DNA from: Thermoanaerobaculaceae bacterium
GTDB taxonomy: Bacteria; Acidobacteriota; Thermoanaerobaculia; Thermoanaerobaculales; Thermoanaerobaculaceae
DNA length: 64,000 nt
Assembly (NCBI GenBank): GCA_963754345.1
Contig: CAVWFZ010000002.1
Span: forward strand, 13,392 to 77,391
Reading direction: 5' to 3'
Shown here: positions 19,830-41,555 of the stretch, in pieces
Layout of the letters: each line of letters opens with the position of its first letter
Numbering within the stretch: the first letter of the stretch is position 1
Made by a program: the position numbers and the translations under genes
The notes under the pieces: generated by a model
Database searches by the model: none
The model's input: only the letters and a program-made list of their open reading frames with translations
Told to the model about the DNA's origin: nothing

Positions 19830-19984
19830 TCCCCCACCCACCCACCCAGGCCTCAGGCTTCAGGCAAGACAAGGTCCGTTCGTTTCTCCTGTAGCCTGAA
19901 GCCTGTCTTTCCTGAGGTCCGAGGCCTGCGTTTGCTGCAGCGCGGCTGACGCCGCGGGACCCTTCGGCCTCACTTCATTCGGCC

Positions 19985-22786
19985 TCAGTTGCTGCGAAGC
20001 TTTGAGATGCGGTTCGCGACGTCCCGGTACGTGGGGTCCTTCGCCGCCAAGCCGGAGAACGTCGCCAGCGCGGAGGTCGTGTTTCCGGCCGCTTCCTGCG
20101 CCCTGCCCAGCTCGTACTGGAGGCCCTGCTCGACCTCGAACGGCAGTCCCTCGGCGGTGAGAGCCCGCGCGTACCACTCGGCCGCCTGCTCGGCGAGCCC
20201 CTTGTCTATGTAGCAGGCACCGATCATGCTGGCGCTCTCGACCAGGTAGTCGGGGGACTTGGCCGAGAGCTGGAACTCGCCGATCGCCTCCTCAAGGAGG
20301 CCCATCTCGCGGTAGGCGAGGCCGAGGTTGAAGTGGGTGTCGTAGTCCTCCTCGTGGACCTGCTCGGCGACCCCGCGCTGAAACTCCTTGAAGAGTTCCT
20401 CGATCGAGACTTCGCCGCTCATGCCGGCGCCGGTCGCCTGGGCAACCATCTCCTCCTCGGCGAGCTCCTTCTCCAGCTCCGCCGCCAGGTCGAAGAACTG
20501 CTCTTCCTCGCTGAAGAGCTCCGCGGCCGAGACCCCCGGCGCAACCTCCCGGCGCTCCTCGTCCCACCCGCGCGCCTTCAGGAGGGCCTGGCGTGCGACG
20601 ATGTCGGGATGCTCCGGGAACGCAGCGCGGATCTTGTCCAGCAGCTTGCCGGCGTCGTCCAGCAGACCCTGCTGGATCAGGAAGTCCAGCTCGCGGAGTT
20701 GGTCCTCACCGGGGCCCGTCAGTACGCCCGACACCTCGACCAGTTCGACTGCATCGTCGAGCGCGTCGACAGGTTCCGGTCCTGGGCGCTGTGCGGCGGG
20801 CGCCGTTGGCGGGGGCGGCGGTGCGCCGGCCGGGGCGTGAGCCGCGGGGACGTGGGCCGCGGGGACGGGGGCACGGGGCTCACGCAGCCCGAGCATGGCC
20901 TCCAGGTTGTCCAACCGGACCGCGCCGGTCGGAGCCCGGCGCGCCTCCGAGGGCCGCTCCGGTTTTGCGAGTCCCGGAACCGCGGCGAAGCCGCCGAATG
21001 GGGGCGTCTCGGCCTCGATCTCGGGGGCGGCCATCTGCCCGGCAAGCTCGTCGAGGCTGATCTCGGGCACCGGCAGGGAGAGCTCGATGGGGGGCTCCGA
21101 TGGTGCCGCGGCCCGCGCCGGTGCGGCGTCAGCGAACGCAGCCAGAGCGTCCCGCGCACCCTTGGTTTCCCTCGCACTCAAGGACGAGGGCATCTCGGCC
21201 GGCGGCATCTCCATCCGAGGCATCTCCACCGGGGCCAGTGGAGGAGGAGGCACCGGGTGCGCGCCACGAGCTTGGGCCACGGCACGGCCCAGCTCCACGC
21301 CCATCGCGTCGACGCCGCCCAGGGAATCGAGCAATTCACGGCCACGTCCATGTGAGGGGTCGACTGCAAGCAGCCGATCGAGGTGCGCCACCGCCTTGTC
21401 GGTCAGCCCGTACTTGGCGAAGACCACGGCCTCGGTGTACAGCTCCTCAAGGTTCTCCTCACCGGCGAGAGGCTCGGCCTCGAACAGCTCGGCGGGCGGC
21501 GGCGGCGGGGAAACGGCCTCGGCGGGGGCGGCCACACCGGAGTCGAAATCCACCTCCACGTACTCCAGCTCGTGGCCCGGATGCGCCGCGGTCGGCACGG
21601 GGGGCGGCAGGGGTGGCGACACACCCAGTTCCTTGAGGCGCTTGGCGAACAGCACGTTCGCGGGGTCCTGCTGGGCCAGCCCCTTGTACAGCTCCGCCGC
21701 CTCAGACTTCCGCCCCTCGCGGAAGTAGACGTCCGCGAGAGCAGTCTCGATGTTCACGACCATGTCGGCGTCGTTCTGCTTGCTGAAAACCTTGAGCGCC
21801 CGCTCCAGGATCTCCGCGTTGCCGGCGTTGCTCCTCAGCAGCCGCTCGACAAGGGTGGCCGCCCGGCCCAGGTCGTTGGCCTCCAGCAGGCGGTCGACGG
21901 TCGAGAGAACGGCATCGCTGGCCTCGAGGGCCCCGCCTCCGCGCGCAATGATCTCACTGTAGAGCTGAACGATATCGGCACGCCCGCCTGCCTGCGGCAG
22001 CAGCTCTTCCACGAGCTTGCGTGCGGCCTGGATGTCGCCGGACTCCAGGAAAGCCCGTGCGGCGGCACGCTTCAGCTCGAGGCCACCCTTGGTGGTGCCG
22101 AGCGCCTTTCTGGCGAGCTCGACCGCCTGGGTCGCTCGCCCGGCGGCCAGCAGTGCGTCCACACACGGGGCGATGAAGTCGCCGTGCTCCGTCTTGAGGT
22201 CGAGGGCGCGGTGGTAGAGCTTGACAGCTTCGTCCAGCATCCCACGCCCGAGGAGCGCGCGGCCCAGAGCGTCGATCTCGGTGCCCACGGACCCGACGTC
22301 CCCGATCTGCACCGAGAGGTCGATGAGCTTGGCGCGCGCCTGGAAGTTGCTTGGCTCCAGCTCGACCAGGCGGCGGTAAACGCGCACCGCTTCCTTGGGC
22401 TGCTTGGAGCGCAGGAACCAGTCGGCGAGCGTGACCATCTGCTGCCGCCCCTCGACGACGAGGCCCTGCTTGAAGTAGAGATCGGCAAGCAACTCGTAGG
22501 TCTCTGTGCGGCTCGGGTCGAGACGGTTGACCTTCTTGTAGATCGCCACGGCCTTGAGAAAGAAGCCGTCCTCGGCGAAGTGCGTGGCGATGCGCTGGTA
22601 GACGTCGATGGCTTCCGCGATGCGCGACGCCCGCACCAGGAGGTCGCCCAGGCGGTTGAGTGCGTTAGTGTCGCGGGGGGCCTGGTCGAGGGCACGCTTG
22701 TACTCCCTGATGGCGGCATCCAGCTTGCCCTTTGCGGCGAGCTTCTCCGCCTCCTGGATGATCAGATCCCGCTTCGACGTCGACAT
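19985..22786 (-). CDS. Large TPR-repeat protein with a central Pro/Ala-rich low-complexity region
   Basis: 933 aa. N- and C-terminal TPR blocks. The central part is PPLPPPVPTAAHP...APAGAPPPPPTAPAAQRPGP. Confidence 0.7.
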   Translation of the reverse strand: MSTSKRDLIIQEAEKLAAKGKLDAAIREYKRALDQAPRDTNALNRLGDLLVRASRIAEAIDVYQRIATHFAEDGFFLKAVAIYKKVNRLDPSRTETYELLADLYFKQGLVVEGRQQMVTLADWFLRSKQPKEAVRVYRRLVELEPSNFQARAKLIDLSVQIGDVGSVGTEIDALGRALLGRGMLDEAVKLYHRALDLKTEHGDFIAPCVDALLAAGRATQAVELARKALGTTKGGLELKRAAARAFLESGDIQAARKLVEELLPQAGGRADIVQLYSEIIARGGGALEASDAVLSTVDRLLEANDLGRAATLVERLLRSNAGNAEILERALKVFSKQNDADMVVNIETALADVYFREGRKSEAAELYKGLAQQDPANVLFAKRLKELGVSPPLPPPVPTAAHPGHELEYVEVDFDSGVAAPAEAVSPPPPPAELFEAEPLAGEENLEELYTEAVVFAKYGLTDKAVAHLDRLLAVDPSHGRGRELLDSLGGVDAMGVELGRAVAQARGAHPVPPPPLAPVEMPRMEMPPAEMPSSLSARETKGARDALAAFADAAPARAAAPSEPPIELSLPVPEISLDELAGQMAAPEIEAETPPFGGFAAVPGLAKPERPSEARRAPTGAVRLDNLEAMLGLREPRAPVPAAHVPAAHAPAGAPPPPPTAPAAQRPGPEPVDALDDAVELVEVSGVLTGPGEDQLRELDFLIQQGLLDDAGKLLDKIRAAFPEHPDIVARQALLKARGWDEERREVAPGVSAAELFSEEEQFFDLAAELEKELAEEEMVAQATGAGMSGEVSIEELFKEFQRGVAEQVHEEDYDTHFNLGLAYREMGLLEEAIGEFQLSAKSPDYLVESASMIGACYIDKGLAEQAAEWYARALTAEGLPFEVEQGLQYELGRAQEAAGNTTSALATFSGLAAKDPTYRDVANRISKLRSN

Positions 22787-22808
22787 GAGGGTGCCATGTA
22801 CCCCGCGC

Positions 22809-23420
22809 TTATCCTAGCACACGCAACGGTTTGAAGCTGAGCCGGTGGTGCTCCGACGCCCCCAGCCTGCGGAGCGCCGCGAGGTGGGCCGGCGAGGGGT
22901 AACCCTTGTTGGTGTCCCACCCATAGCCGGGGATCTCGTGCGAGAGCAGCACCATCGTCTCATCGCGCACCACCTTGGCCACGATCGAGGCGGCGGCCAC
23001 GCAAAGGTAGCGGGCGTCGGCCCGCACCTCCGCCCGGTGCTCGACGGCCAAGCCCGGCAGCGCCACCGCGTCGGTGACCACGAGGCCGGGGGTCCTGGGG
23101 AGGGAGAGCACAGCCTCCAGCATCGCCGCCCGAGTCGCTTCCAGGATGTTCAGGCGGTCAATGTCGGCCGGGCCACGGTGCGCCACCGCGCAGCACACTG
23201 CCTTCTCGAGGATCTCGGCGGCGAGGCGGCAGCGCTTCTTGGGGGAGAGGCGCTTGGAGTCGTCGAGGCCAACCACCGGCCTGCCGGGATCGAGAATGAC
23301 GGCAGCAACCGTGACGGGACCGGCGAGTGCTCCGCGTCCCACCTCGTCCACGCCGGCGATCAGGCCGTACGCTGCCTCGAGTTCTTGGTCAAGCGCACCG
23401 TCGGGCGGCGCGGCTCTCAC
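22809..23420 (-). CDS. rnhB: Ribonuclease HII
   Basis: [19 protein letters not shown] and [11 protein letters not shown] are RNase HII motifs. Confidence 0.85.
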
Positions 23421-23764
23421 TGCCGGTCGTAGTCCTCCTCGAGGCGCGCGGCCTTCCCCTTGAGCGCCCGCAGGTAGTAGAGCTTGGCCCTGCGAACGCG
23501 GCCGTGGCGCACGACCTCGATGCGGGCGATGCTCGGCGAATGCACCGGGAAGATCCTCTCCACGCCGATGCTATAGGAGACCTTGCGCACCGTGAAGCTC
23601 TCGCGAACCCCACCCCCACGACGCCCGATCACCACGCCCTCGAAGACCTGGATACGTTCCTTCTCGCCCTCGCGGATCTTGACGTGCACGCGTACCGTGT
23701 CACCCGGCCCGAAGTCCGGGATGTTCTCGCGCATCTGCTCTTTTTCGAGCTCGCGAATATCCAT
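23417..23764 (-). CDS. rplS: 50S ribosomal protein L19
   Basis: [35 protein letters not shown] is the L19 signature. Confidence 0.9.
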
Positions 23765-23829
23765 GACAGACCTCCAACCCTGACCGCGCTCGAGGAGGAC
23801 GTGGCGCGGAAGGGGGATTATACACGCCT

Positions 23830-24641
23830 TCAGCGGCTACGGGAAGGGTCCGAGCCCTCTCCGGGCGGGTCCGGGGGGAGGCTGATCCCCTCCTCGGCTG
23901 CCACGGCCCTCGCCACGCCCCGGGTCTCGGGGGCCAGGACGGCCCAGGCGGCGCGGACCAGGTCCGGCCTGCGCCTGAGCGTCAGCCGCACCGCCGCCTC
24001 GAGGCGCCACCGGCGCACCGCCTCATGGTCGCCCGACGACAGCACCTCGGGCACCTCCCGGCCCTCGAACTCGCGTGGCCGGGTGTAGACCGGGTGGTCC
24101 AGCAGGCCCGACGTGAAGGAATCGGCCGCCACGGAGCCGGGGTCCCCGACCACGCCCGGCAGGTGGCGGGCGGCCGCGTCGAGCATCGCGAGCGCGGCCA
24201 ACTCCCCCCCGAGAGCACGAAGTCCCCGAGAGAGATCTCGTCCGCGCGCAGGATCTCGTGGACGCGCTCGTCGAACCCCTCGTAGCGGCCGCAGACGAAG
24301 AGCAGGCGGGGGTAGCCGGCCAGTTCCCGGGCGACCGTGTCGTCGAAACGCCGCCCGCGCGGGTCAGGGAGCACCACGTGAGGCTCTCCGGCCATTGCGA
24401 CCACGTCGCGCACCGCCGGCACCACGGCGGGAGCCAGCAGCACCATCCCCGGCCCGCCCCCGTACGGTTCGTCGTCCACCTGCCCGTGGCGGTTTACCGC
24501 CCACCTGCGCAGGTCGTGCACGCGCACGTCGAGCAGGCCCGCGGCGCCCGCCCGCCCGAGCACGCCGACGGCCAGGTACGGCTCGACGGCGGCCGGGAAG
24601 AGGGTCAGGATGTCACAGCGCATCGTCGTCGAAGAGCCCAC
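23830..24641 (-). pseudogene. trmD: tRNA (guanine37-N1)-methyltransferase, interrupted by a -1 frameshift in a G7 run
   Basis: ORF 23982-24641 carries N-terminal TrmD through [14 protein letters not shown] 23830-24201 continues as [22 protein letters not shown]...DSFT in another frame. The junction is the run of 7 C at 24203-24209 (plus strand); 8 would restore the frame. Confidence 0.75.
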
Positions 24642-25146
24642 GGGGAGGGTCGAGCACCACGGCGCGTCCCGTCAAGTCGACCTTTACCACGATCGGGGCC
24701 GCGAACGGCACCAGCACCTCGCCCCCCTCCGTCGCCACCGCCAGCAGGGGCGCGCCGGGGCCGGTCTGCAGATCCGTCACGTCACCCAGAACGGTGCCGT
24801 CCGCGAGCACGCACCGGCAGCCCACCAGCTCGTGCTCGTAGTAGTAGTTTGCCGGCAGCGTGGAGCGCTCCTGGGCTGGGAGGAAGACCCAGAGGCCGCG
24901 CCAGCCCTCGATGTCGTCGCGGCTGAGGATCCCGACGAAGCTGAGCAGCCAGTCTCCCTTGTGGAAACGGACGCGGTGGACGACCTTCTGGAACTCGGGG
25001 GCGTCATGGCCGAGGCCGACCTCCACCCCGGCAACCAGGCGCTCGGGGAAGTCGGTCAGCGTCTCGACCGCGACCTCGCCGTGCACCCCATGGGGACGAC
25101 GCACTCGCCCCACGGCCAGCCAGCTGGCTTCGGGGCCCTCGGCCAT
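24613..25146 (-). CDS. rimM: Ribosome maturation factor RimM
   Basis: [25 protein letters not shown] is the RimM N-terminal; a PRC barrel lies at the C-terminus. Confidence 0.85.
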
Positions 25147-25377
25147 CTACTCGAGGATCTCGAGCACGAAGCGCTTGCGGATCTTCATGCCGGCGGCCGC
25201 CAACAAGGTGCGCATCGCCCGTGCCGTCTTGCCCTGCTTGCCGATGACCTTGCCGAGGTCCTCCGTCGCAACGCGCAGCTCGAGCACGGTGGTCTGTTCG
25301 CCCTGGACCTCGTTCACCTGCACCTTGTCGGGTTGGTCAACGAGCGCCTTCGCGATGTGTTCGATGAGCTCTTTCAT
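25147..25377 (-). CDS. KH-domain RNA-binding protein (UPF0109/YlqC-like)
   Basis: ATG at 25377 ([21 protein letters not shown]...[18 protein letters not shown]). Conserved position between rpsP and rimM. Confidence 0.75.
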
Positions 25378-25409
25378 GCGCGCCTCCCAGTCAGCCGTGT
25401 GTGGCGGTC

Positions 25410-25646
25410 CTAGGTCGTGGTCTTTTCGAGCAAGCTTTTCACCGTCGGCGAAAGCTGCGCCCCGCGTGCCACCCAGTACTCCACGCGCTCGCGGTTGATC
25501 GTCACCTCCACCGGCTTGCTGCGGGGATTGTAGAAACCCACCTCTTCCAGCACCGCCGCCGTCGGCGTCTTCCGGCGATCGGAGACAACCACGCGATACA
25601 CCGGGCGCTTGTTGGAGCCCATTCGCCGCAGTCGAATCATCAGCAT
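25410..25646 (-). CDS. rpsP: 30S ribosomal protein S16
   Basis: [23 protein letters not shown] is the S16 sequence. Confidence 0.9.
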
Positions 25647-25717
25647 CGAGATCTCTCCTTACCTTGCTTCGCGGAGGAACCGCGAACGAGAATTGTACCA
25701 AAACGCGCTTCCAGCCT

Positions 25718-27037
25718 CTACAACCCCATCGAGCGCAGCACCCGGCGGGGGTCGCCGCTGCCCAGCCGCTTGACCAGACGCTTCATCTCGGCGTACTGCC
25801 GCAGCAGGCGGTTGACCTCCTCCACCGTGGTCCCCGCGCCACGGGCGATCCGCTTCCGGCGCGACCCATTGAGGATGTCGGGGCGGCGGCGCTCCTGCGC
25901 GGTCATCGAGCAGATGATGGCCTCGAAACGCACGAGCTTCCTGTCGTCCACCTGGGGGCCCTTGAGCGCCTTGACGCCCGGCAACAGGTCCACGAGTTGG
26001 TTCAGCAGGCCGCCGCCGCGCATTTGCTTGAGCTGGTCGCGCAGGTCGTCGAGGTCGAACCCCTCGTTCTTGAGCTTGCGCTCCAGCTCCGCGGCCTTCT
26101 TCTCGTCCACCGTCGCCTGGGCCTTCTCGAAGAAGGTCGCCATGTCGCCGAGCCCCAGGATGCGCGCCGCCATCCGGTCGGGGTGGAAGAGCTCGAGGTC
26201 CTCCAGGCGCTCGCCCACCCCCGCCAGGCGGATCGGCTTGCCGGCCACGGAGACCACCGAAAGTGCCGCTCCGCCGCGGGCGTCGCCGTCCAGCTTGGTG
26301 AGGATCACGCCCGAGAGCGGCAACCGCGCCGAGAACGCCTCCGCCTGCTTTACCGCGTCCTGGCCGGTCATGGCGTCCGCCACGAACAGCACCTCGCTGG
26401 GTGCAAGGATGCCGTACAGCTCTGTGAGCTCGGACATCAGCTCGTCGTCCACGTGGAGCCGGCCCGCGGTGTCGAACACGATCACCTCGAACCCCTTGCG
26501 GCGGGCCTCCACGAGGGCGGCGCGGGCGATCTCCGGCGGCGACGGCCAGGCGCGCGTGTCGAGCACCGCCAGCCCGGCCTGCGCGCCGAGCTGTTCGAGC
26601 TGCTCGCGCGCCGCCGGCCGCTGGGTGTCCGCTGGCACGAGCAGGACGTGCTTGCCCAGCTTCGCCTTGATGAACACGCCCAGCTTGGCGGCCGTGGTGG
26701 TCTTCCCGGTCCCCTGCAGCCCGACCAGCATCAGCGGTGCCGGGAACCCCTTGAACTTGAGCGGGCGCTCCTGGCCGCCCAGGAGGCGCGTGAGCTCCTC
26801 GTGGACGATCTTGAGCACCTGCTGCGCCGGGGTCAGGGAGGTCAGGACCTCCTTGCCCAGGGAGCGCTCCCGCACCCTGCTTGTGAATTCCTTCACAACT
26901 GGCAGCGCCACGTCAGCGGCCAGCAACGCGCGCCGGATCTCGGCAAGGGCGTCGTCCACGTGCTTCTCGGTGAGATGCCCCTCGCCGCGCAGCGTCTTGA
27001 AGACCTTTTGCAGCCGGTCGGAGAGCGCTTCGAGCAT
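25718..27037 (-). CDS. ffh: Signal recognition particle protein Ffh
   Basis: ATG at 27037 after GGGAGG. GTPase motifs [20 protein letters not shown] and [10 protein letters not shown], plus a Met-rich M domain. Confidence 0.9.
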
Positions 27038-27114
27038 GCCCCTCCCAGGGAGGTGGAGTCTACCTCCCAATGGCCCACCCCTCAAGCCAGCCTGTTCTTA
27101 CTGCACTCCGTGCA

Positions 27115-27760
27115 CGTTTCTTGCCCCGCGGGCTCGGATCGGCACTTTGTTCCTTCAACAGCGTTGCACTCTTTTTGCCCCGCGGGCTGGGAGCAGTCGC
27201 TCGGGCTGCGCATCGAGCGCAGCCCTCCGACCCGCCTTCGCGTGCGACCGAGCTGGCACAGACCGGCGTGCGGACCCTCGCTGTTCCTCGCCCTCGCGCT
27301 GCGCGCTCGTGTTCGGCCAGCGTTTCCACCCGCCGGTCTGGCCGCTCGGTGCCCGCACGCTCCGCCGGAATGGCTCCTATCGCCCGCGGGGCGGATTTCA
27401 CCTCCACCCCCCCGGTTCCCTGTGCACCTGCACGCACCTGATGCTCTTGCCAGGACTCTCGCCCCATTGGCACAGCCACCGCGTTACGGGAGGGGGACTT
27501 TCAATCCGCCGGTGCCGCGGGCGGCCTATCTCTCCGGAGCCCGTGGGCACCACGCGGTGGGATCCGGCGTGAGGTATCGGTGGCGCGAGGAGCCCAGGTT
27601 TGTGGCGACGAGCGAACACCGAGGAGCCTCGCGACGGGCCCGCCAGGCGTGGTCGCGGGCGGAGGAGTGTGCGGCCGCAGGCCGCGGGGGCGGCCAAGGC
27701 CGCAGGTTTAGCCACCCGTGGGACCGGCAACACAAAGCCACGCAGTGAAAGGGAGAGGCC
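27115..27760. repeat. Copy B of the dispersed repeat family (about 645 nt), in the divergent ffh / secreted-protein intergenic region
   Basis: The 5' motif TTGCCCCGCGGGCT occurs twice (27121, 27176). 83 nt match copy A. The core GGGGGACTTTCAATCCGCCGGTGCCGCGGGCGGCCTATCTCTCCGGAGCC and the 3' module GCCACCCGTGGGACCGGCAACACAAAGCCACGCAGTGAAAGGG are present. Confidence 0.65.
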
Positions 27761-27874
27761 GGCCGCGAATTCCGTCGTCTCTGGCGCCACTGGCATGGCC
27801 TGCCCCCCTTGACGCCCACCCCTCGCGCCTTAGATTGGACCCAAGAGATCGAATTTGGTCCCTTGGAGGCGAAG

Positions 27875-28789
27875 ATGTGGCTTCTCCCCCGCCTTGTCGC
27901 GGCAGTCGCCGTAGGCGCCCTGGCGACCAACGCCTCTGCGGCCGGAGCAGCCGTTGCCGGCCGCCGGTTGTCAGATATCGAGATCCCACCGGGAACCTCG
28001 GTCGGTGCCAACGGGAAGGGTGAGATCGGGTTCCTCCTCGCCGAGGAACACCGTCTTTGTTGGTGGGCCCCCGATGGCGGGTTTCGCCGCTGTCTCGAGA
28101 TCCCCGGAGTCCGGCCGGCTCATGTGCCTCTTGCGCTTTGCGGACGGGCGAACAGGTTCTTGGCGTGTTTCGGGGACCGCTCTGGACCGCCCAAGCGATG
28201 CACCGTGGTGGACACGACGCGAGCAAGAATCGTTGGCGCCTTCGCTGTCGAGGATTGGCCCGGGCCCACCTTTGCAGGGGCCAACGGCTGGGTTGTAGCT
28301 CTGATCGCGCACGAGAAGGGGCCAGTGGGTTTTCGGGAACTCAGCGACGCTGGCCGGACCATCCGCGAGTTCCCCTTGCCCGCTACTTGGGAAGCGGCTG
28401 TACACGCCGCAGGGCCGGCATTCCCGTTGTGGTTCCCGCGCGTGTTCTCCATTGAGGGGGAACTCTGGGGCATACCTGCAGGGCACTATGGCTTTTGGAA
28501 GCTGAACGAACGGAGAGCAGGTGAGGTGAAGGTCCCACCGGGGCTGGCCGTGACCGACCATAACCTCGATGTCACTTCGTCTTCCCCTCTGGTGCAGGAA
28601 CGTCTGGCGGACATGCCGGCCGCAATGCGTGAGCGCACGCTTGGTGGCGGCAACACAGCTCCACGGCGGGGTTCAGCAGCCGTCCACATCAGTGCTATTC
28701 GCGACGTCGCTGCCTTTGGGAAAAGAGTAGGCGTACTCGCGGTGGTGGATCCAGAAGCTATGGACGGTGGCTGCAGACTAGATGTCTGA
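27875..28789 (+). CDS. Secreted hypothetical protein, paralog 1
   Basis: ATG at 27875 after GGAGGCGAAG, with a putative promoter TTGACG...TAGATT upstream. Signal peptide MWLLPRLVAAVAVGALATNASAAGA. Shares the motif ELWGIPAGHYGFWKL with the 29004 gene (EVWFIPNAKYELWRL). Confidence 0.5.
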   Translation: MWLLPRLVAAVAVGALATNASAAGAAVAGRRLSDIEIPPGTSVGANGKGEIGFLLAEEHRLCWWAPDGGFRRCLEIPGVRPAHVPLALCGRANRFLACFGDRSGPPKRCTVVDTTRARIVGAFAVEDWPGPTFAGANGWVVALIAHEKGPVGFRELSDAGRTIREFPLPATWEAAVHAAGPAFPLWFPRVFSIEGELWGIPAGHYGFWKLNERRAGEVKVPPGLAVTDHNLDVTSSSPLVQERLADMPAAMRERTLGGGNTAPRRGSAAVHISAIRDVAAFGKRVGVLAVVDPEAMDGGCRLDV

Positions 28790-29003
28790 CTACTACTACA
28801 CGCAGGACAGCGGGTACTGCATGATTCGCTCATGGACCTGCATCGGCGACGGCAGCGGAAGCAACGAGTACTGCTATTGAGACGTCTGGTCTGCGCCCGG
28901 CGGCGGTAATGGCCTGTGCGCCGACCGCCGCCGGGACCTGAATCCGCGGCCGCGCCATGGCAAGCCGTTGGATAATGACAGTACGGGCTGATTCTGACTG
29001 GAG

Positions 29004-30245
29004 TTGAACATGCGTTGGCTTCGGAGTGCCCAGTTGCTCATCTTCAGCGGCTTGGCCGTCATCATGATCTCTGGGCCAGCCACTGCCGAGGAAGACACCG
29101 CTCCCCTCGAGCGCGCCCACACTTCTAGCGCGTGGCTCGTGGCCCGGGACGGGCTCGGTAGGGTAGGAGTCTGGGACAAGGACACCGGGTGGGTGCGGGT
29201 TTGGAAGGCGGACGGGAGCCTCGCAGCGCAGTGCAGGGTGACCGACCTGCGCGTGGGGAACTTTCCGTCCCAACTCGCCATCCGTGGTGACAGGGCGTTG
29301 TTGAAGTCGAACGACCCGCCGCCCGGAGACCGCAAGAAGCAGCGTGCCCTCGTGGTAGACCTTGACTCGTGTGAGGTGCTCCACGATTTCACGCTGGGCG
29401 GTGTTGCGCTGTCCCTTGAACCCTCGGACTCGGCATGGCTGCTCGTCCTCAACGAGACGCTGCTGGTGTCCGACACGTACAAGCTGGTGGAGATCGATGA
29501 TGAGGGCGGCACGGTTCGGACCTTCGAGTATGACCAACCGGCCCGCCAGCTCGTGCGAGAGATGAAGCTGGATGACCTCAGCGGCCCGATGAACGGGCGA
29601 CTGGTGGCAGTCCGCCAGGAAGTCTGGTTCATTCCGAATGCAAAGTACGAGCTGTGGCGATTGCCCCAAAGGGGGCTTCCCCTGCGGCGAGTCGAGGTGC
29701 CGGAGTGCCTGGCGGCGAAGGGCCGGCGCATCACCGGAGACGAGAACGTCCGCCTCTATCAGGAGATGCTCAAGGACGAATCCGAAGCCAGTCGCAAGTT
29801 CTGGATGAAGGGAAAGATGCGCGATTCGTTCTGGCCCGCAGCCACGTCCGCGGCGGCGTATGAGCGTCTCCTCGCGGTGGCGGTCAGGGACGGCAAGCTC
29901 GGTGGTGAAGAGCGTTTGGACATCTGGGACATGACGACCGAGTCCCTGGTGGCAATCGCGAAGGTGCCGACAGGGACGTGGCTCGTTTCGCTCGGCCCCG
30001 ACCATGCCTGGCTGCTCCGCGGCGCGAAAACCTTCGAGAGGCTGGCGCTGCCAGACCTCACGGTGCCGCTGGACGATCCGTGCAAGACCTACGCGGCATT
30101 GGTCGAGAGCGCGAGCGACAAACCCAACTCCAAGACACCAATCGCGGTGGTCAAGGAGAACGGGACGGGAGCCTCAACCCAGCCGACACCGACGCCAGGA
30201 CCGCAAGCCCCATCCCATAATCTCGGCTTTCACATCTCACCATAA
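29004..30245 (+). CDS. Secreted hypothetical protein, paralog 2
   Basis: Signal peptide MRWLRSAQLLIFSGLAVIMISGPATA. Lower GC than the flanks. Similar motifs and order to the 27875 gene. The overlapping minus-strand ORF 28830-30005 is Arg/His/Pro-rich noise. Confidence 0.5.
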   Translation: MNMRWLRSAQLLIFSGLAVIMISGPATAEEDTAPLERAHTSSAWLVARDGLGRVGVWDKDTGWVRVWKADGSLAAQCRVTDLRVGNFPSQLAIRGDRALLKSNDPPPGDRKKQRALVVDLDSCEVLHDFTLGGVALSLEPSDSAWLLVLNETLLVSDTYKLVEIDDEGGTVRTFEYDQPARQLVREMKLDDLSGPMNGRLVAVRQEVWFIPNAKYELWRLPQRGLPLRRVEVPECLAAKGRRITGDENVRLYQEMLKDESEASRKFWMKGKMRDSFWPAATSAAAYERLLAVAVRDGKLGGEERLDIWDMTTESLVAIAKVPTGTWLVSLGPDHAWLLRGAKTFERLALPDLTVPLDDPCKTYAALVESASDKPNSKTPIAVVKENGTGASTQPTPTPGPQAPSHNLGFHISP

Positions 30246-30329
30246 ATATCGCGAGTGATTGCCGCCAGGTCACCAACTGGTAGTACGTCCCAGCATCGGG
30301 GACGCACCACGGAGGGAAACCATCGCAGC

Positions 30330-30495
30330 CCAAACCCCGCAACCCGCAGGCGGGCGATGCCGAGGGGTCCGCACGGTGAGCACGGCTGTTCCGCCGTACA
30401 CAGGGTCTCTCGCGCAGGCGTCGCGAGCGAAGCGAGCGCGCGAAGCCACCCCCGGGCAAACAAAAGAGGTGCCACGCAGCTGAAAAAAGATACCG
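30330..30495. repeat. Partial or degenerate copy of the dispersed repeat family (3' module)
   Basis: TCGCGCAGGCGTCGCGAGCGAAGCGAGCGCGCGAAGCCACCCCCGGGCAAACAAAAGAGGTGCCACGCAGCTGAAAAAAG aligns with 63290-63390 and with the 3' modules of copies A and B. Confidence 0.45.
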
Positions 30496-30644
30496 CTCCC
30501 AGCGCGCTGGGCAAAAGCGAGCCACGGAGTGGCAAAGTAAGCAAAATCCGGATCCAGAGGCGAAGAGCAAGCACCCAAAGACGTTGCGGATGGGGGACCG
30601 GAAACAGCTCTGGTGAACAAACCGGCTCCGGGAGAAGGCGTAGA

Positions 30645-31190
30645 ATGAAACGGGCGTTTCCGGCGAAAGGTGCAACCATGATCGTTTTCCTTACGCTCGC
30701 AGGCATCGGGCTCTTCTTGCTCCTCGTGTCCGCCTTCAGCGGGCACCACATGGACTTCCACTCCGACATCGACCACGGCGGCTTCGGCTTCCTCTCCGTG
30801 CGCGCCTTCGCGGCGTTCTTCACCGCCTTCGGAACGGTGGGCGCCATCGGGCGGCACTACGGGCTGACCACCGGCTGGAGCTCGGTGTGGGGGTTGGCCT
30901 CGGGGGTGGGCCTCGTCGGCCTGTACGTCGTTTCGATGGAGCTCGTCAAGTCGCAGCAGGCCAGCTCCCTGATCGCCGAGAACGAGCTGGTCGGCCTCAC
31001 CGCCCGGGTCACGGTGGCAATACCCGCCGACGGCATCGGCGAGGTGAGCTGCATCGTCAAGGCACAGACCGCGCGCCGCATGGCGCACAGCAGATCCGGG
31101 CAACCGATCGGCGAGGGCCATATGGTTCGCGTGATCGAGCTGCAAGGGGACGTCTGTCTGGTCGAGCCGTTAACGCAGTCGCAGGCGTAG
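30645..31190 (+). CDS. NfeD-family membrane protein (flotillin partner)
   Basis: Two N-terminal TM helices and a C-terminal OB-fold-like domain (GEVSCIVKAQTARRMAHSRSGQPIGEGHMVRVIELQGDVCLVEP). Located immediately upstream of flotillin. An alternative ATG lies at 30678. Confidence 0.7.
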   Translation: MKRAFPAKGATMIVFLTLAGIGLFLLLVSAFSGHHMDFHSDIDHGGFGFLSVRAFAAFFTAFGTVGAIGRHYGLTTGWSSVWGLASGVGLVGLYVVSMELVKSQQASSLIAENELVGLTARVTVAIPADGIGEVSCIVKAQTARRMAHSRSGQPIGEGHMVRVIELQGDVCLVEPLTQSQA

Positions 31191-31214: not shown

Positions 31215-32786
31215 ATGCTCCCGTTCAGTCTTTCCCTCGTTCCGGTCCTTCTGGTCCTGGCCGCGCTGGTGGTCCTGGTCGTCTTCATGACCGCGGTGCG
31301 CAACTACATCAAGGTGCCGCCCAACAAGGTAGCGGTGTTCTTCGGGCGAAAGCACAGGACACCCGACGGGGCGACGGTCGGCTTCCGCCTGATCACCGGG
31401 GGCGCCTCGCTCAGGTGGCCGATCTTCGAGAGCGTCTCCTACCTCGACCTCAACATCTTCTCGATCGACCTGGACGTACGGGACGTGCCCAACAAGGACG
31501 GCGTGCTCGTTTCCGTTCAGGCTGTCGCCAACGTCAAGATCCGCAGCGACGAGGTGTCCCTGACCGCGGCGGCCGAGCGCTTCCTCAGCCGCAGCACCGA
31601 CGATATCAAGCAGATGGCCTACAAGAACCTCGAGGGCCACCTGCGCTCGATCGTCGGCCGCCTCACGGTCGAGGAGATCGTTCGCGACCGCGCCAAGTTC
31701 AACCAGGAGGTGCTCACCGAGGCGGCCGCCGACCTCGCCAAGATCGGGCTCGGCGTGGACGTGCTGACCATCCAGAAGGTCTCCGACGCCGAGGGCTATA
31801 TCGAGGCGCTGGGCAAGAAGCGCACCGCCGAGGTCAAGCGCGACGCCCAGATCGGTGAGGCCCTCGCCGCCCGCGAGGCCACGATTCAGTCCACCACCGC
31901 GCTGCGCGAGGGAAAGGAGACGGAGAACCAGAACCTCGCACTCGTGGCCCAGGCCGAGAAGGAGCGCGACGTTCGCAAGGCCCAGTACCAGGCCGAGGTG
32001 CAGGCGCAGCAGGCGCGCTCGCAGCAGGCCGGGCCGCTCTCCGAGGCCAAGGCCAGGCAGGAGGTGGTTGCCCAGGAGGTCCAGGTCGAGGTGATCCACA
32101 CGCTCAAGCAGACCGAGGTCGCCGAGGCCGCGGCCCTGCAGCGCGAGAAGGCCCTCCTCGCCGAGGTCGTCAAGCCCGCCGAGGCCCAGAAGGTCCAGAC
32201 CATCCTGCAGGCCGAGGCCGCCAAGCAACGCGAGATCCTCGAGGCCGAGGGCCACAGGACCGCGGTCGTCACCGTCGCCGACGCCGAGAAGCAGCGCCTT
32301 GCCCTCGAAGGCACGGGCGCCGCCGACGCCCTGCGGGCGAAGCTGCTCGCCGAGGCCGAGGGCAACAAAGCCAAGCTGCTCGCCGAGGCGGAAGGCAACA
32401 AGGCCAAGTTGCTCGCCGAGGCGGAAGGCATCAAGGCCAAGCTGCTCGCCGAGGCCGAGGGCGCCCTCAAGAAGGCGCAGGCGTTCGCGAAGATCGACGA
32501 GGGCGCCCGCACCATGCTCGTGCTCGAGCGCCTGCCCGACATGATCAAGGCGTTCGCGCCGGTGGCGGGGGCGGTGGCGGCGCCGATGGGCAACATCGAC
32601 AAGGTGATCATGATCGACGGCGGCGGCGAGGGCTCCTCGACCCTCAAGCGCTACGCCGACACCGTTCCCTCCACGATGTTCAGCGTGCTGCAGACCGCCC
32701 AGGCCCTCGGGCTCGACATCTCCGGCCTGCTGAAGAAGCTCGGGGTACAGGAGGTCAAAGAGGGCGGCGGCAAGGTGTCGGAGTAG
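31215..32786 (+). CDS. Flotillin-like SPFH/Band-7 protein
   Basis: N-terminal TM, an SPFH domain, then long Ala/Glu/Gln-rich coiled coil with KLLAEAEGNKA repeats. Typical FloT/YuaG architecture. Confidence 0.85.
   Translation: MLPFSLSLVPVLLVLAALVVLVVFMTAVRNYIKVPPNKVAVFFGRKHRTPDGATVGFRLITGGASLRWPIFESVSYLDLNIFSIDLDVRDVPNKDGVLVSVQAVANVKIRSDEVSLTAAAERFLSRSTDDIKQMAYKNLEGHLRSIVGRLTVEEIVRDRAKFNQEVLTEAAADLAKIGLGVDVLTIQKVSDAEGYIEALGKKRTAEVKRDAQIGEALAAREATIQSTTALREGKETENQNLALVAQAEKERDVRKAQYQAEVQAQQARSQQAGPLSEAKARQEVVAQEVQVEVIHTLKQTEVAEAAALQREKALLAEVVKPAEAQKVQTILQAEAAKQREILEAEGHRTAVVTVADAEKQRLALEGTGAADALRAKLLAEAEGNKAKLLAEAEGNKAKLLAEAEGIKAKLLAEAEGALKKAQAFAKIDEGARTMLVLERLPDMIKAFAPVAGAVAAPMGNIDKVIMIDGGGEGSSTLKRYADTVPSTMFSVLQTAQALGLDISGLLKKLGVQEVKEGGGKVSE
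32340..32465. repeat. About 3.8 tandem 33-bp coding repeats (KLLAEAEGNKA) inside flotillin
   Basis: Period-33 repetition of AAGCTGCTCGCCGAGGCCGAGGGCAACAAAGCC is visible directly. Confidence 0.8.
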
Positions 32787-32795: not shown

Positions 32796-33287
32796 ATGTC
32801 CCAGCTCGCCTACACAAGCCAGAAGCCGTTCGAGGACAAGAGCAGCAACGTCCTCGTGGTCGCCTGCTCCGGCTACGCTTTTCTCCCTTTCGTGCGGGAG
32901 TTCCTCGACGCGCACCTCAAGCTGCCCGAGGGCTCCTACAACCTGATCGCGGTGCCCGGGGGCCCGCAGTTCCTGGCGCTCTCGGAGTACCTGCCGAAGT
33001 TCGCCTGGGTGGGGCAGAAGTGGATGACGTTCGCGATCGAGAAGCTGCAGGTCCGCAGGATCATCCTCGTCTGGCACCAGGAGTGCGTGTGGTACGGCGA
33101 CGAGCGCTTCGTCCCGGCGCTCCTGCACGCGCTCGGTCACGGCGAGCGGACGATGAAGGACCGCCAGCTCGAGGACCTGAGGCACGTCGTGGCCACGATG
33201 CGCGCCTCCGTGCCGGTGGCCTCCGTGGAGGCGTACTACATCGACAAGGGCGTCGACGGTCACCTGACCGTCAGCCGCGAGGCGTGA
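32796..33287 (+). CDS. Hypothetical protein (163 aa), co-oriented with flotillin
   Basis: Coding-like composition. Starts 10 nt after the flotillin stop. No family recognised. Confidence 0.45.
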   Translation: MSQLAYTSQKPFEDKSSNVLVVACSGYAFLPFVREFLDAHLKLPEGSYNLIAVPGGPQFLALSEYLPKFAWVGQKWMTFAIEKLQVRRIILVWHQECVWYGDERFVPALLHALGHGERTMKDRQLEDLRHVVATMRASVPVASVEAYYIDKGVDGHLTVSREA

Positions 33288-33398: not shown

Positions 33399-34103
33399 GT
33401 GGAGGTAAACGGCAAGGCGCTATGGACGATCTCCTACGGTATGTACGTGGTCACCGCCCGCTCCGGCGGCAGGGCGAACGGACAGATCGCGAACGCCGTC
33501 TTCCAGGTCACCGCCGAACCCCCGAGGGTGGCCGTGGCGATCAACAAAGACAACTTCACCCACGGCCTGATCCGCGAAGGGGGCTGGTTCGCCTTCTCGG
33601 TGCTCGCCGAGAGCGTACCGGCGGAGATGATCGGCCTGTTCGGCTTCAAGTCGGGGCGGGACGTGGACAAGCTCGCCGAGGTCGGCTTCCGTGAGGGGCG
33701 ACACTGCCCGCTGGTGACCGATAACGCCCTCTCCGTGACCGAGGCCAGGGTCATCCAGGAGCTGGATGTGGGTTCGCACACCATGTTCGTCGGCGAAGTG
33801 GCGAGCGCGGAGTTCCTAAAAGACGGCACGCCCCTGACGTACGCGACCTACCACGCCCACAAGGGCCGTGCACCCAAGAACGCGCCCACCTACCAGCCCG
33901 AGCCTGCCCCGGCTCCGGCTGCCACGCCGGCGCCCGCCGTGGCCGCGTCCACGTGGACCTGCGGTGTGTGCGGCTACACCTACGACCCCGCGGTCGGGGA
34001 CCCGGCCAACGGCATCGCCCCGGGCACGCGGTTCGAGGACCTCCCCGACGACTGGGCCTGCCCCGCTTGCGGCGCCCCAAAGGACGCGTTCCTGGCCGAC
34101 TAA
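33399..34103 (+). CDS. Flavin reductase-like (FMN-binding split-barrel) domain fused to a C-terminal rubredoxin
   Basis: GTG start after GGAGGTG. N-terminal flavin reductase-like fold. C-terminal [12 protein letters not shown]...[15 protein letters not shown] gives the rubredoxin CxxCG...CPxCG ligands. Confidence 0.7.
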
Positions 34104-34147
34104 CTGTCGGCGCCGTTACCGAATTCGTCCGCGAAACAAGCTCCAGT

Positions 34148-34564
34148 CTACCGGCGCGCCGCTTGCTTCTGCTCGCCGGGCTTGTAGGGGCGCAGGCAAA
34201 AGGCGGACCAGGTGTCGTTCACCGAGATCAGGTTGACCCACTTCAGGTCTGCGCCGGCGAGCCCGTCCCACCCCTTGTCGCGCGTCAGGTCGGTCTGAAT
34301 CCCTGAGGTCCCCTTCGGGAACGAGATCCAGAGCAGCCCCTCGGCGCCGAGAGCCTTGACCACCCTCGGTGCGACGCTCTTCAGCTCCGCGCTCGTGCGC
34401 ACGAACGCCTGGACCCAGTCGAACGTCCCCTGCAGCTTCTCGGAGATCTCAACCCCGGCCGGCAGCGGCGCAAGCTCTTTGAGGTACCCGCCCGGCGCGC
34501 CTATCACCGCCGCGCGACTCCCCGCCTTCAGCTTCATCTTCCTCGCGAGTGCGCTTTCAGTCAT
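34148..34564 (-). CDS. DUF3052 domain protein
   Basis: MTESALARKMKLKAGSRAAVIGAPGGYLKEL matches the DUF3052 N-terminal consensus. Confidence 0.55.
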   Translation of the reverse strand: MTESALARKMKLKAGSRAAVIGAPGGYLKELAPLPAGVEISEKLQGTFDWVQAFVRTSAELKSVAPRVVKALGAEGLLWISFPKGTSGIQTDLTRDKGWDGLAGADLKWVNLISVNDTWSAFCLRPYKPGEQKQAARR

Positions 34565-34597
34565 CCCATCCCCCGTGCGTGAACGCCTGCTGCTGCG

Positions 34598-34804
34598 TCA
34601 CCTGGGCTTCTCCCCGGCGCACAGCAGCCAGATCGCCCAGGCGCAGTACGCCCCCGAAACCGGCAGTCCCACATACGACAACACGAATGGGATCGTCGTC
34701 GTTCCGACCACGATCGGCCAGTGGAAGATGAGCCTGAAGAGGTGAAGTACCGCAACGAGAAGAAAAACGGCTCCCGAAAGGATCAGGTACAGCTTCTTGG
34801 CCAT
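34598..34804 (-). CDS. Small two-TM membrane protein (hypothetical)
   Basis: 68 aa with two hydrophobic helices. Confidence 0.35.
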   Translation of the reverse strand: MAKKLYLILSGAVFLLVAVLHLFRLIFHWPIVVGTTTIPFVLSYVGLPVSGAYCAWAIWLLCAGEKPR

Positions 34805-34860
34805 ACGAACGCTCCCTTCAAACCGCCGAACGACGCGCCGGCGCCGCCCAGGGGCGAGTA

Positions 34861-34897
34861 GATCAGACGTCGCGGTAGCGGCGGAGCTGCTCGGCCA
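34861..34897. repeat. Orphan duplicate of the Lon-like gene's last 11 codons; the left member of a direct-repeat pair with 39121-39157
   Basis: ATCAGACGTCGCGGTAGCGGCGGAGCTGCTCGGCCA here versus ATCAAACCTCGCGGTAGCGGCGCAGCTGCTCGGCCA at 39121. The reverse complement encodes AEQLRRYRDV* versus AEQLRRYREV*. Similarity extends about 15 nt further upstream. Confidence 0.65.
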
Positions 34898-34943
34898 CCA
34901 CTTTCAGGCGACTTGGCCTGCCCAGGCACAGGTGGTCCCGTGA

Positions 34944-35804
34944 TCAACGCCTGAAGACGGTGTAGCCCGTCGAGGCCTGCCATTCCGAAACCGCTGAGTA
35001 GAGCCGCGTCTGGCGGAAGTACGCAAACTCGAACGCTAGACGCAGCGATTGTTCTACTCTCTCGGGCGTAACCGTTGCGGCCGAGTTAGTCCCGAGGGTC
35101 CGCCGAAGTCCAATAGCGAGAACGTTGGCGATGTCGTGGCCGCAGCAAATCTGCCACGGATCGTGATTCCATCCGACTTCCGCGCCCAACGCAGTGAGCA
35201 GGTCTCTGGTCTTCAGATCATGCCTCTGCGAGTGGTCCTTAACTTCAGCGACGAGGCGGCCTGTTTCGCAGCGGAGATACGGCCTGTCGAGGATGAACCG
35301 CGACAAGTGCAGTCCTTCAAATCTAAGCCGAAGATCGCCGCGGCGTGAGATATGCCTCAAGTGGCCTAGGGGGAGGGCGGCGAAGATGATCGCCTCGCGA
35401 TGGCTCTTTTGTGCCAGAACGGCGTGCACCTTGAGTTTCTCGACCGATCCCAACTCAGCGAGGACGCGGTCCAGCGCAGGCGACGCAACGATCATCGTTT
35501 CCAGGTCATGCGTGTCTGTGTGAAAGAGTGACGGGAGCGCGGGAATATCGTTGTCGACTACGGAAAAGTCTGCGTCGATGATGCCAAGGACACCTTCGAC
35601 ATTGGCGCGCGTGAGGATCGATAGAGCTCTGGTTAATACCTCCCGGTTGTGAGAAGGGAGCAGTACGCACTCACCCTCGACAGTGAAGGCACCCAAGCAC
35701 TTTGCGTCCGCAGGTCCCTCGACAAGGAGGATTGATCCAGCGTGAACATCGCGCAGCAAGCGCACCGTCGCCACGAGAGCGTCTGGCGAGACGCATTCGA
35801 TCAT
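34944..35804 (-). CDS. DUF4435 / OLD-family Toprim-like protein (AriB-like)
   Basis: Toprim-like Glu (LLVEGPAD) and DxD (GIIDADFS). The ATG overlaps the upstream ATPase stop as ATGA. Lower GC. Confidence 0.55.
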   Translation of the reverse strand: MIECVSPDALVATVRLLRDVHAGSILLVEGPADAKCLGAFTVEGECVLLPSHNREVLTRALSILTRANVEGVLGIIDADFSVVDNDIPALPSLFHTDTHDLETMIVASPALDRVLAELGSVEKLKVHAVLAQKSHREAIIFAALPLGHLRHISRRGDLRLRFEGLHLSRFILDRPYLRCETGRLVAEVKDHSQRHDLKTRDLLTALGAEVGWNHDPWQICCGHDIANVLAIGLRRTLGTNSAATVTPERVEQSLRLAFEFAYFRQTRLYSAVSEWQASTGYTVFRR

Positions 35805-37132: not shown

Positions 37133-37304
37133 GAGAGGCTCCTGTTCTGTGGCGCGGCTCTGGCAAACAGCCTAAGTCAATGCAATCGTATCCTCTTTAT
37201 AGCTGGTGCGAAAGCGCTGTCGCGCAGGGGACGCTTGGCGAACGACCGATCGGCGGTCTGCCGCTCATCTGGCTGTCCGAGCCAAAGCCAAGCTCACGGC
37301 GCCG

Positions 37305-37655
37305 CTACTCGGGCGCGAGCAGGGCCCGTGCTCTGGCCAGGATCTCCTCGACCGTCGGAGGCGGGAGCACGCAGGCGAGCGTCGCCTTGCGCGCCCGCCA
37401 GTCCAGACTCTTGATCTGGTCAGCGAGGATCACACCGCTGACGGCGAGGTCGTCAGGAATTGGCACCTCGAACGGGTACCCCTTCACCTGCGACGTCACC
37501 GGGCACGCCAGGCAGAGACCCACCTTGCGGTTATACGCCTTGGGCGTCAGCACCACGGCCGGTCGGCGACCTGCCTGCTCTCGTCCGGCCTGGGGAGTGA
37601 ACGTGAGCCAGACAACGTGGCCGCGGTCGGGCACGTAGGGCATAAGAGCTACCAA
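37305..37655 (-). CDS. mazF: MazF/PemK-family endoribonuclease toxin
   Basis: VVWLTFTPQAGREQAGRRPAVVL...ADQIKSLDW is the PemK/MazF fold signature. It overlaps the upstream antitoxin by 7 nt. Confidence 0.8.
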   Translation of the reverse strand: MVALMPYVPDRGHVVWLTFTPQAGREQAGRRPAVVLTPKAYNRKVGLCLACPVTSQVKGYPFEVPIPDDLAVSGVILADQIKSLDWRARKATLACVLPPPTVEEILARARALLAPE

Positions 37656-37891: not shown

Positions 37892-38102
37892 GGCGCCTCC
37901 CCTGGATCGACAATGAAGATACATCGCACACCACGGCTCGTCAAGTGCGATGGCAGGGCGGGGGGTGGCACGAGCAATGGACACCCCCTCCCGGATCCCT
38001 CGCTTCGCTCGGGATGACAAACAGGAAGCGCCTTGCGGGGAGACGGACGGAACACCCGGAGGCGGGACAAGTGCGCACCGCCACCCGCTGGGCAAACCAG
38101 CG

Positions 38103-39115: not shown

Positions 39116-39121
39116 GGCAAA

Positions 39122-41506: not shown

Positions 41507-41555
41507 TCGCCACCTCCGACGTTCCGGCGCGCACCGCGGACCGCTCCACGCGATC

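Follow-up and report, generated by a model that had tools for sequence, protein, structure and literature searches.

The repeats analyzed here have their closest described counterparts in MITEs (miniature inverted-repeat transposable elements) and foldback elements, such as the Correia elements of Neisseria and the enterobacterial RU and ERIC sequences; in the bacterial interspersed mosaic elements (BIMEs) and repetitive extragenic palindromes (REPs) of enterobacteria and the neisserial intergenic mosaic elements (NIMEs, mosaics of dRS3 and RS sequences); and in integron cassettes with their attC sites. The secreted proteins encoded beside them compare best with NHL-repeat propellers (TRIM-NHL/Brat, PAL, bacterial DUF4221/DUF5128, and the PknD sensor). 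Thermoanaerobaculia are abundant, almost uncultured Acidobacteriota, and to our knowledge their mobile DNA is essentially undescribed. We analyzed a 64,000-nucleotide (nt) stretch of a Thermoanaerobaculaceae genome (contig CAVWFZ010000002.1; hereafter the window), in which copies of a non-coding repeat of about 550 nt bracket a lower-GC segment next to ffh. The locus is probably a strain-variable spot that holds a decaying foreign cassette, once a triad of genes for a propeller A, a secreted peptide S and a propeller B, while the bracketing repeats would be independent, lineage-specific elements.

Like MITEs and foldback elements, the repeat is non-coding, a few hundred nucleotides long, multi-copy and intergenic, it bears inverted motifs at its termini and has a strong potential to form hairpins, and its copies occur in either orientation, truncated, rearranged, and often bordering variable DNA. 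It differs from them in its length, at the large end of their range, in its separable modules, in the lack of an identified target-site duplication or parent transposase, and in compensatory changes and a strand bias that are unexpected from simple decay of an inverted repeat. With BIMEs, REPs and NIMEs it shares a conserved imperfect palindrome (61 nt) set in mosaics with other motifs, inverted palindrome pairs (copy E of the window and many metagenome copies) found in both orientations, hairpins kept by compensatory changes, and a link with rearrangement and variable regions. However, its core hairpin of about 45–61 nt exceeds the 20–40 nt of a REP and by inspection carries no GTAG/CGTC tag. 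Moreover, no gene for a REP-associated tyrosine transposase (RAYT) was present in the window or on repeat-bearing contigs, the related Y1_Tnp genes being tied to triads elsewhere and not to the repeat. As in integrons, accessory or promoter-poor genes of deviant composition lie on the same strand between repeats beside a conserved gene, and, like attC, the repeats are imperfect palindromes that would act as single strands. In contrast to attC, the repeats are 5–10 times longer and by inspection have no R''/R' GTTRRRY boxes, and, unlike in integrons, the cassette has its own promoter-like site and repeats also sit singly between core genes. No IntI or other recombinase was found among the window genes scanned.

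The cassette beside ffh

Two sequences served as the main points of comparison. The nearest genome found was a Thermoanaerobaculaceae metagenome-assembled genome (MAG; L008, DATKLI010000076), whose Ffh is 87% identical in amino acids (aa) to that of the window; the next-best match, from another Thermoanaerobaculia MAG, reached 61%. A metagenome contig (L094; ENA ERZ25039515 contig_76554) is 95–98% identical to window positions 27768-30510. The features of the cassette and its borders, with open reading frames abbreviated as ORFs, are as follows.

25718-27085, minus strand: ffh (SRP54 GTPase; Pfam SRP54, SRP_SPB, SRP54_N), the conserved anchor and last gene collinear with L008
27086-27874: spacer between ffh and ORF1, 790 nt
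27809-27836, plus strand: predicted sigma-70-like promoter TTGACG-16-TAGATT (consensus scan), in the unique cassette leader downstream of repeat copy B
27875-28789, plus strand: ORF1, propeller A, 304 aa, C-terminally truncated (by homologs, L094 and hhalign)
28782-28880, plus strand: remnant of S, a 32-codon mini-ORF (by alignment to the C-terminal half of S proteins)
28788-28789: junction of a 502-bp deletion relative to L094, with TG microhomology
29010-30245, plus strand: ORF2, propeller B, 411 aa, apparently intact and full length
30246-30677: spacer between ORF2 and NfeD, 432 nt

An initial annotation of the window had described 27875-30245 as a segment of lower GC that encodes two paralogous secreted proteins with shared ordered motifs and no recognizable domain. 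The composition agreed with this description. The 2.37-kb segment has a GC content of 0.639, compared with a window mean of 0.683 (about 68%), and a GC as low as this was found elsewhere in the window only in a patch at 34.5–37 kb. The GC content at third codon positions (GC3) is 0.67 in ORF1 and 0.79 in ORF2, against 0.870 ± 0.028 (minimum 0.80) across 30 core genes; the difference in composition is significant. ORF1 and ORF2 share 23% identity over 232 aa (BLASTP, E 2e-9), and their family profiles align over the whole length (hhalign, probability 99.0%, E 2.6e-18, 319 columns), so judged the two are true paralogs. Both quoted motifs were found again in ORF1 and ORF2. The N-termini of the two proteins are hydrophobic with AxA-like sites, and signal peptides were called by inspection only; neither ORF1, ORF2 nor S belongs to a family in Pfam, NCBIfam or PADLOC. 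The gene content needed correction: ORF1 starts at 27875, the remnant of a third gene (28782-28880) had been missed, and ORF1 is truncated at its 3' end.

Homologs of ORF2 are rare, with five clusters at 47–57% identity and about 60 more distant clusters found by profile search. Every contig with such a homolog carries genes for A, S and B in the same order, except one (L093) on which S was not called. A is ORF1-like, 332–353 aa long in the homologs, with sequence running beyond GGCRLD(V)W. S has 68–69 aa, a signal peptide and six invariant Cys in the pattern C-x6-C-x2-CD-x3-Y-x6-7-C-x4-W-x-C-x8-10-C-x, and B is ORF2-like, with 383–411 aa. By gene content and order, the cassette unit is a conserved triad of propeller A, a six-Cys secreted peptide S, and propeller B.

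In the window this triad is incomplete. A ends with GGCRLDV and a stop codon, about 50 (~52) residues short. Of S only the final 30 codons are left (MSDYYYTQDSGYCMIRSWTCIGDGSGSNEYCY), without the signal peptide and the first three Cys; every other A protein extends some 50 residues further, and every other S protein retains its signal peptide and six Cys. L094 positions 202-1221 correspond to window 27768-28788 and L094 1724-3444 to window 28787-30510, while L094 1222-1723 is missing from the window. These 502 bases encode the end of A (WSLPAS...GGTR and stop) and, beyond a spacer, codons 1–37 of S (MRARLVVGLLLVAVALLGIGLAADIAQGCESYTSACQYCDS). As they supply exactly the missing A end and S start, the window copy is the derived, deleted state. 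In the alignment of the A and B profiles, the lost part of A is the last propeller blade. The cassette appears to be decaying here, and at least S is predicted to be non-functional, because the deletion took its export signal and half of its Cys.

Triads occur in at least eight unrelated contexts, near genes for Y1_Tnp, IS66, IS91, AbiE or RepA_C. IS66 lies beside the triad of one contig (L133), IS91 together with a group II intron reverse transcriptase beside that of a 280-kb Thermoanaerobaculaceae contig (L131), and AbiE and RepA_C genes beside a further one (L001). A conserved Y1_Tnp family adjoins the triad in three independent contexts (L002-L005, L133, L134), with 55–78% identity between contexts, and may be the means by which triads move. 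These Y1_Tnp proteins (IS200/RAYT-like, 233–332 aa) are encoded 0.15–2.1 kb downstream of the triad, in two tandem copies in L004, and do not occur in the window. In L133 the triad has a GC3 of 0.72–0.81, compared with 0.82–0.96 for most of its neighbors. We regard 27768-30350 as a horizontally acquired three-gene cassette of 2.6 kb because of its low GC3, because triad GC3 is below that of the neighbors in L133 as well, and because triads recur in at least eight unrelated contexts beside mobile-element genes. A viral origin was rejected, as IMG/VR held neither ORF2 relatives on viral contigs nor the repeat core. Downstream of the triad and Y1_Tnp in L002, a 119-aa Cys-rich secreted protein is followed by a 364-aa secreted beta-rich protein (4486-5976); this pair may be an analogous module of a small peptide and a propeller.

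The cassette leader (27768-27874) is 100% identical in L094, and through the promoter predicted within it the cassette would be self-promoted. A structural model of ORF2 from a six-sequence alignment is an all-beta, NHL-type propeller of six blades with a helical insert between blades; predicted local distance difference test (pLDDT) scores are 80–92 for the blades, with low values for the signal peptide, the insert (about 238-275) and the tail. In common with NHL-repeat propellers, the ORF2 family profile weakly matches NHL blades in PDB sequences (E 1e-4) and in multi-blade NHL/WD40 proteins. Unlike them, ORF1 and ORF2 have no match to Pfam NHL (PF01436; the profile matches were weak and to single blades), contain the helical insert at about 240-275 (low confidence), and belong to a family that always forms a paralog pair around a six-Cys peptide gene; we know of no description of such an arrangement. 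The model of S has pLDDT values of 87–92 for residues 30-69, with five strands and an all-beta mature part of 41 residues. S has no relative among PDB sequences and no significant structural match (best Foldseek E 0.4). A suspected resemblance to the Cys-rich small subunits of quinoprotein amine dehydrogenases was dropped, as no supporting maturation genes were found nearby. Most likely, the paralogous A and B of an intact triad would bind or process the disulfide-rich peptide S within an extracytoplasmic complex of the three.

Repeat copies and the ffh–Lon interval

Repeat copies were located with blastn and with an nhmmer profile built from 17 of them.

2571-3127, plus strand: copy A, complete and flanked by two convergent core genes (nhmmer E 7e-126; long hairpin, z -8.7)
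27098-27771, plus strand: copy B (blastn against copy A; nhmmer 27169-27771, E 2e-100; fold z -6.3)
30355-30533, no strand assigned: copy C, partial and degenerate (blastn to 63297-63400 and to the reverse complement of 2577-2685; below the nhmmer threshold)
38842-39127, no strand assigned: copy D, partial, abutting the stop codon of the Lon-like gene (nhmmer 38907-39127, E 2.5e-22 and 2.8e-21 on the two strands)
63055-63415, no strand assigned: copy E, an inverted pair of cores and a right module, among ordinary genes (nhmmer)

The profile matched the four sites 2571-3127, 27169-27771, 63055-63415 and 38907-39127, each on both strands, at E 1e-21 to 7e-126, and no further site in the window. 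Copy C was missed by the profile and is therefore considered real but degenerate. The 64 kb thus counted carries four strong sites and one weak site, and the 22-nt core occurs three times in the window versus not once in 100 shuffles. In blastn, the spacer between ffh and ORF1 matches 2574-3081 in two blocks (77% and 70%, E 7e-50 and 5e-26), the inverted core at 63056-63123 and, weakly, 39006-39093; the spacer between ORF2 and NfeD matches 63297-63400 (72%, E 6e-10) and the reverse complement of 2577-2685. In copy B, a terminal motif at 27102-27135 is accompanied by a left module, the core at 27487-27551 and a right module from which the terminal inverted motif is missing; over 580 nt this copy shares 76% identity with metagenome copies on L125 and L129. 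Copy D has 70–78% blastn identity to many metagenome copies. At its end copy C carries the terminal motif twice, in the opposite orientation to the left end of B; a hairpin-plus-TTTTGCCC motif at 30533-30500 (minus strand) mirrors 27102-27135 (plus strand). The sequence CGCGAA is present at both cassette-side junctions (27762-27769 and 30438-30445), where it may be a chance match. The proposal that a repeat copy and a partial copy flank the lower-GC segment was hence confirmed, with B and the degenerate C bracketing 27768-30350.

The 22-nt core pattern was found on 36 metagenome contigs, 33 of which share the surrounding element; the other three are chance matches in coding sequence. The samples behind metagenome contigs L095-L130 are from freshwater sediment and wetlands. 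Repeat-bearing contigs have only the repeat in common with the window, save one that is the L008 locus itself. The family is present in L008 and L094 and was not found in five other Thermoanaerobaculia ffh loci, in L131, or in any other triad locus; it was found only in this Thermoanaerobaculaceae sublineage, to which it seems specific. L094 ends inside a repeat on both sides, an illustration of how repeats break assemblies.

The genes on the far side of the cassette are the following.

30678-31190, plus strand: NfeD (Pfam)
31215-32786, plus strand: flotillin (SPFH; Pfam)
32796-33287, plus strand: 163-aa gene
33399-34103, plus strand: flavin reductase–rubredoxin fusion (Pfam)
34148-34564, minus strand: 138-aa gene
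34862-34910, minus strand: displaced 49-bp duplicate of the Lon-like 3' end, forming direct repeat D10 with 39121-39169 (86% identity); left border of a second islet
34944-37132, minus strand: AriB/AriA-like pair (PADLOC), with AriB at 34944-35804 (9e-14) and AriA at 35801-37132 (6.5e-25)
37305-37655, minus strand: MazF (NCBIfam, 1e-39)
38422-38709, minus strand: HigB-like toxin (Pfam, 3.5e-20)
39122-41620, minus strand: LonB/LonC-like protease
41556-44249, minus strand: MMPL

Within the flotillin gene, 32336-32495 holds four tandem 33-nt (11-codon) repeats encoding AKLLAEAEGNK units, probably a coiled-coil repeat in the protein. At 3984-4508, tandem 87-nt repeats (D1 and D7; three and two copies) lie in a gene for a 600-aa methyltransferase-domain protein (3127-4929, minus strand), whose N-terminal, coiled-coil-like portion would thus repeat a unit of 29 residues. 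A distant inverted pair of 41 nt (9019-9059 and 52377-52417; 78% complementary) of GGGCACAGGGC-type units is unrelated to the main repeat family.

Comparison with L008 (reverse complement; tblastx) divided the region into blocks.

17911-27089: collinear with L008 3-9331
27089-33414: replaced in L008 by 6.1 kb of unrelated secreted-protein genes
33414-34820: collinear with L008 15492-16876
34820-39110: replaced in L008 by 0.6 kb
39110 onward: collinear with L008 17483 onward

The gene complement of L008 differs here, which, like the significant difference in composition, fails to refute the initial proposal. The 5' side of the ffh operon is, by this comparison, a strain-variable spot. The initial annotation had gone further, placing a single accessory island between ffh and the Lon-like protease/MMPL genes, its modules, NfeD–flotillin included, marked by the repeats. 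The interval is indeed variable, but it consists of two segments split by the two-gene block 33399-34564, which has 72–74% aa identity to L008 and L115 (tblastx, tblastn). NfeD, flotillin and the 163-aa gene do not look like cargo: their GC3 of 0.91–0.96 is native and they have no repeat on their right side, although they are absent here in L008. Homologs of these three genes were not found within 10 kb of ffh in 80 genomes, and apart from the repeat family the first variable segment has no att-like direct repeats.

The second segment has borders of its own. The 49-bp duplicate reads ...AEQLRRYRDV and stop, as does the Lon C-terminus in L008, while the live gene ends ...AEQLRRYREV and stop. 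The 4.2 kb between the direct repeats contain AriB/AriA (PARIS-like), MazF, the HigB-like toxin and repeat D, have a GC3 of 0.65–0.68, and are absent from L008. This islet (34862-39169), in which no integrase gene was seen, has the hallmarks of an integrated element that entered at the Lon-like gene's 3' end, given the 49-bp duplicate of that end, the deviant GC3 and the absence from L008. The ffh–Lon region is made up of at least two independent islets.

Repeats do lie at the borders of variable DNA: B abuts ffh and D abuts Lon as outer borders, and C forms an inner border between the triad and NfeD. If about 5 of some 45 intergenic regions carry a copy, chance alone would put repeats on both flanks of a given gene block in the order of 1% of cases, a rough and post hoc estimate. 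As module markers they fail elsewhere, since A and E sit between core genes and the second islet has its own 49-bp borders. Upstream of the cassette, the window has a 216-nt right arm where L094 has 58 unrelated nt; as the two differ in repeat modules at the same cassette, the repeats change faster than the cassette. The repeat family is absent from homologous triads in eight other contexts, and the repeats are therefore not part of the cassette. Taken with the copies beside native genes, this makes the repeat a lineage-wide intergenic element and not a dedicated cassette marker.

The best-surviving alternative, which we nevertheless consider rather unlikely, is that the repeats are active: inverted copies would delimit a composite or foldback transposon, or be dedicated recombination sites, and so capture and move gene modules, and the region would be a repeat-delimited cassette array. 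The inverted terminal motifs at 27102-27135 (plus) and 30533-30500 (minus) bracket the whole unit, and C has the terminal motif that is missing from B's right arm. At three independent loci, copies enclose low-GC cargo: in the window, in L008, where those at 9388-9615 and 11352-11509 lie on either side of a gene of lower GC for a secreted protein beside ffh, and in L128, where two copies flank a stretch of 0.58 GC with a small ORF. The ends of the L094 contig in repeats on both sides would also fit, as would the fact that strains 95–98% identical differ in repeat content. On the other hand, triads elsewhere lack such repeats, and copies also flank native genes (the inter-repeat genes of L098 and L123 have a native GC3 of 0.86–0.91) or sit singly between core genes. 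The native composition of NfeD–flotillin and its missing right-hand repeat, the att-like borders of the second islet, and the lack of a cognate transposase or target duplication all argue the same way, and the divergence of C from B's right arm is too great to fit a recent event. The gene between the repeats in L008 (reverse complement 9654-11060) encodes a secreted protein of GC3 0.73 with FG-GAP/VCBS-like DxDGDG motifs.

Under the interpretation we prefer, dispersed MITE/BIME-like elements would populate intergenic DNA throughout the lineage. Their presence at variable borders would mean either that DNA there tolerates insertion or that dispersed copies offer homology for recombination, and the evidence fits both.

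Structure of the repeat

Pairwise extents define the modules as a core (-13 to +48), a right arm reaching to about +250/+290 and a left arm reaching to about -207/-330. Copies consist of the core alone, the core with one arm, all three modules, or two inverted cores. ORFs inside copies lack a coding-type GC3. At the left end, a 5-bp mini-hairpin precedes TTTTGCCCCGCGGGC; at the right end, a mini-hairpin comes after GCCCGCGGGGCAAAA. The left arm is approximately the reverse complement of the right arm. In blastn, the self-complementarity of copy A amounts to an 18-nt match only; the foldback was seen in folding and in the profile matches on two strands.

For the core and right arm, 18 distinct copies gave a consensus structure of 74 pairs. 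In this structure 95.6% of the cells are paired, as against 36–44% when partners are slid by 1–3 columns, and 28 of the 74 pairs have compensatory double changes, as against 4–7 when slid; none of 500 shuffles reached the observed values. The structure is biased to the core-to-right-arm strand (alifold -118 vs. -97 kcal/mol; 95 vs. 20 G-U pairs), on which the minimum free energy of single sequences was also lower in 15 of the 18 copies. These covariation and strand signals are also expected for hairpins of single-stranded DNA. At the gathering threshold Rfam found only one tRNA in the whole window, and nothing at E ≤ 1 in copies A and B. A tblastn search for Y1, IS91 and IS66 transposases found none in the window or on repeat-bearing contigs, so that an origin of the repeats from RAYT/REP or IS200-type elements is unsupported. 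In the literature on repeats and MITEs in Thermoanaerobaculia and Acidobacteria, nothing specific was found. We infer that the repeat is a lineage-specific, non-autonomous, structured intergenic element of MITE/BIME-like type.

A bolder suggestion, which we put forward as speculative and doubtful, is that the core and right arm (about 250 nt) function as a single-stranded nucleic acid, be it a structured RNA of a new kind or a DNA hairpin acted on by some unrecognized Thermoanaerobaculaceae transposition or recombination system. Pairs of elements would then capture and exchange gene modules (the triad, genes for secreted proteins and for small membrane proteins) at hot spots, of which the region upstream of ffh would be one. 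If true, this would be a cassette-exchange system without an integron integrase.

That the repeat is primarily a structured RNA (a non-coding RNA in many copies, or a mobile element's RNA such as a guide or scaffold), with the nearby cassette incidental, seems improbable to us. The strong covariation behind the 74 pairs and the clear strand preference speak for it, as do fold z-scores of -6 to -9 and a primary sequence conserved across many contigs. Yet transposase recognition of single-stranded DNA would give the same signals, copies lie in every orientation to their neighbors, even between convergent genes, and modules are shuffled, inverted and truncated. The relation of left to right arm is that of DNA foldback elements, and neither an Rfam match at E ≤ 1 nor an associated protein gene was found.

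Weight of the evidence and meaning for the lineage

It is highly improbable that the segment is native, with ORF1 and ORF2 a local tandem duplication, the low GC due to weak expression or amino-acid content, and the repeats filler: the GC drop is modest (0.64 vs. 0.68; 7% of the window lies in same-size windows at or below it) and the GC3 of ORF2 (0.79) is near that of the lowest core gene (0.80), but ORF1 lies 7 standard deviations under the core mean, L008 lacks both genes at this locus, A and B stem from an ancient duplication (23% identity) that is kept as a triad in other organisms, and triads elsewhere adjoin transposases.

Several points count against a decaying foreign cassette between independent repeats. 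The synteny rests on one reasonably close genome, which leaves the direction of gain or loss of NfeD–flotillin unfixed. The low-GC cargo between repeats in three cases (window, L008, L128) hints at a more active role of the repeats, while no transposase, integrase or target-site duplication for the cassette or the repeats was found in the window. Substitutions between window and L094 are distributed over the codon positions as 10/8/29 in ORF1 and, with less third-position bias, as 10/7/14 in ORF2; the bias in ORF1 may mean that it was functional until recently, or still is. L094 itself differs from the window by six single-base indels that split its gene calls; these may be assembly errors, and L094 is thus an imperfect reference. 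Finally, the function proposed for the triad is wholly conjectural.

The locus is of an ordinary kind and does not overturn current ideas, but it holds two uncharacterized families. The A-S-B triad, unannotated and transposase-associated, could be a new extracytoplasmic system of a secreted peptide and propellers. The repeat family is dispersed and modular and has an unusually strong, strand-biased structural covariation. Its copies break metagenome assemblies and coincide with variable loci, which makes them relevant to the quality of MAGs and to an understanding of how plastic the genomes of this lineage are.

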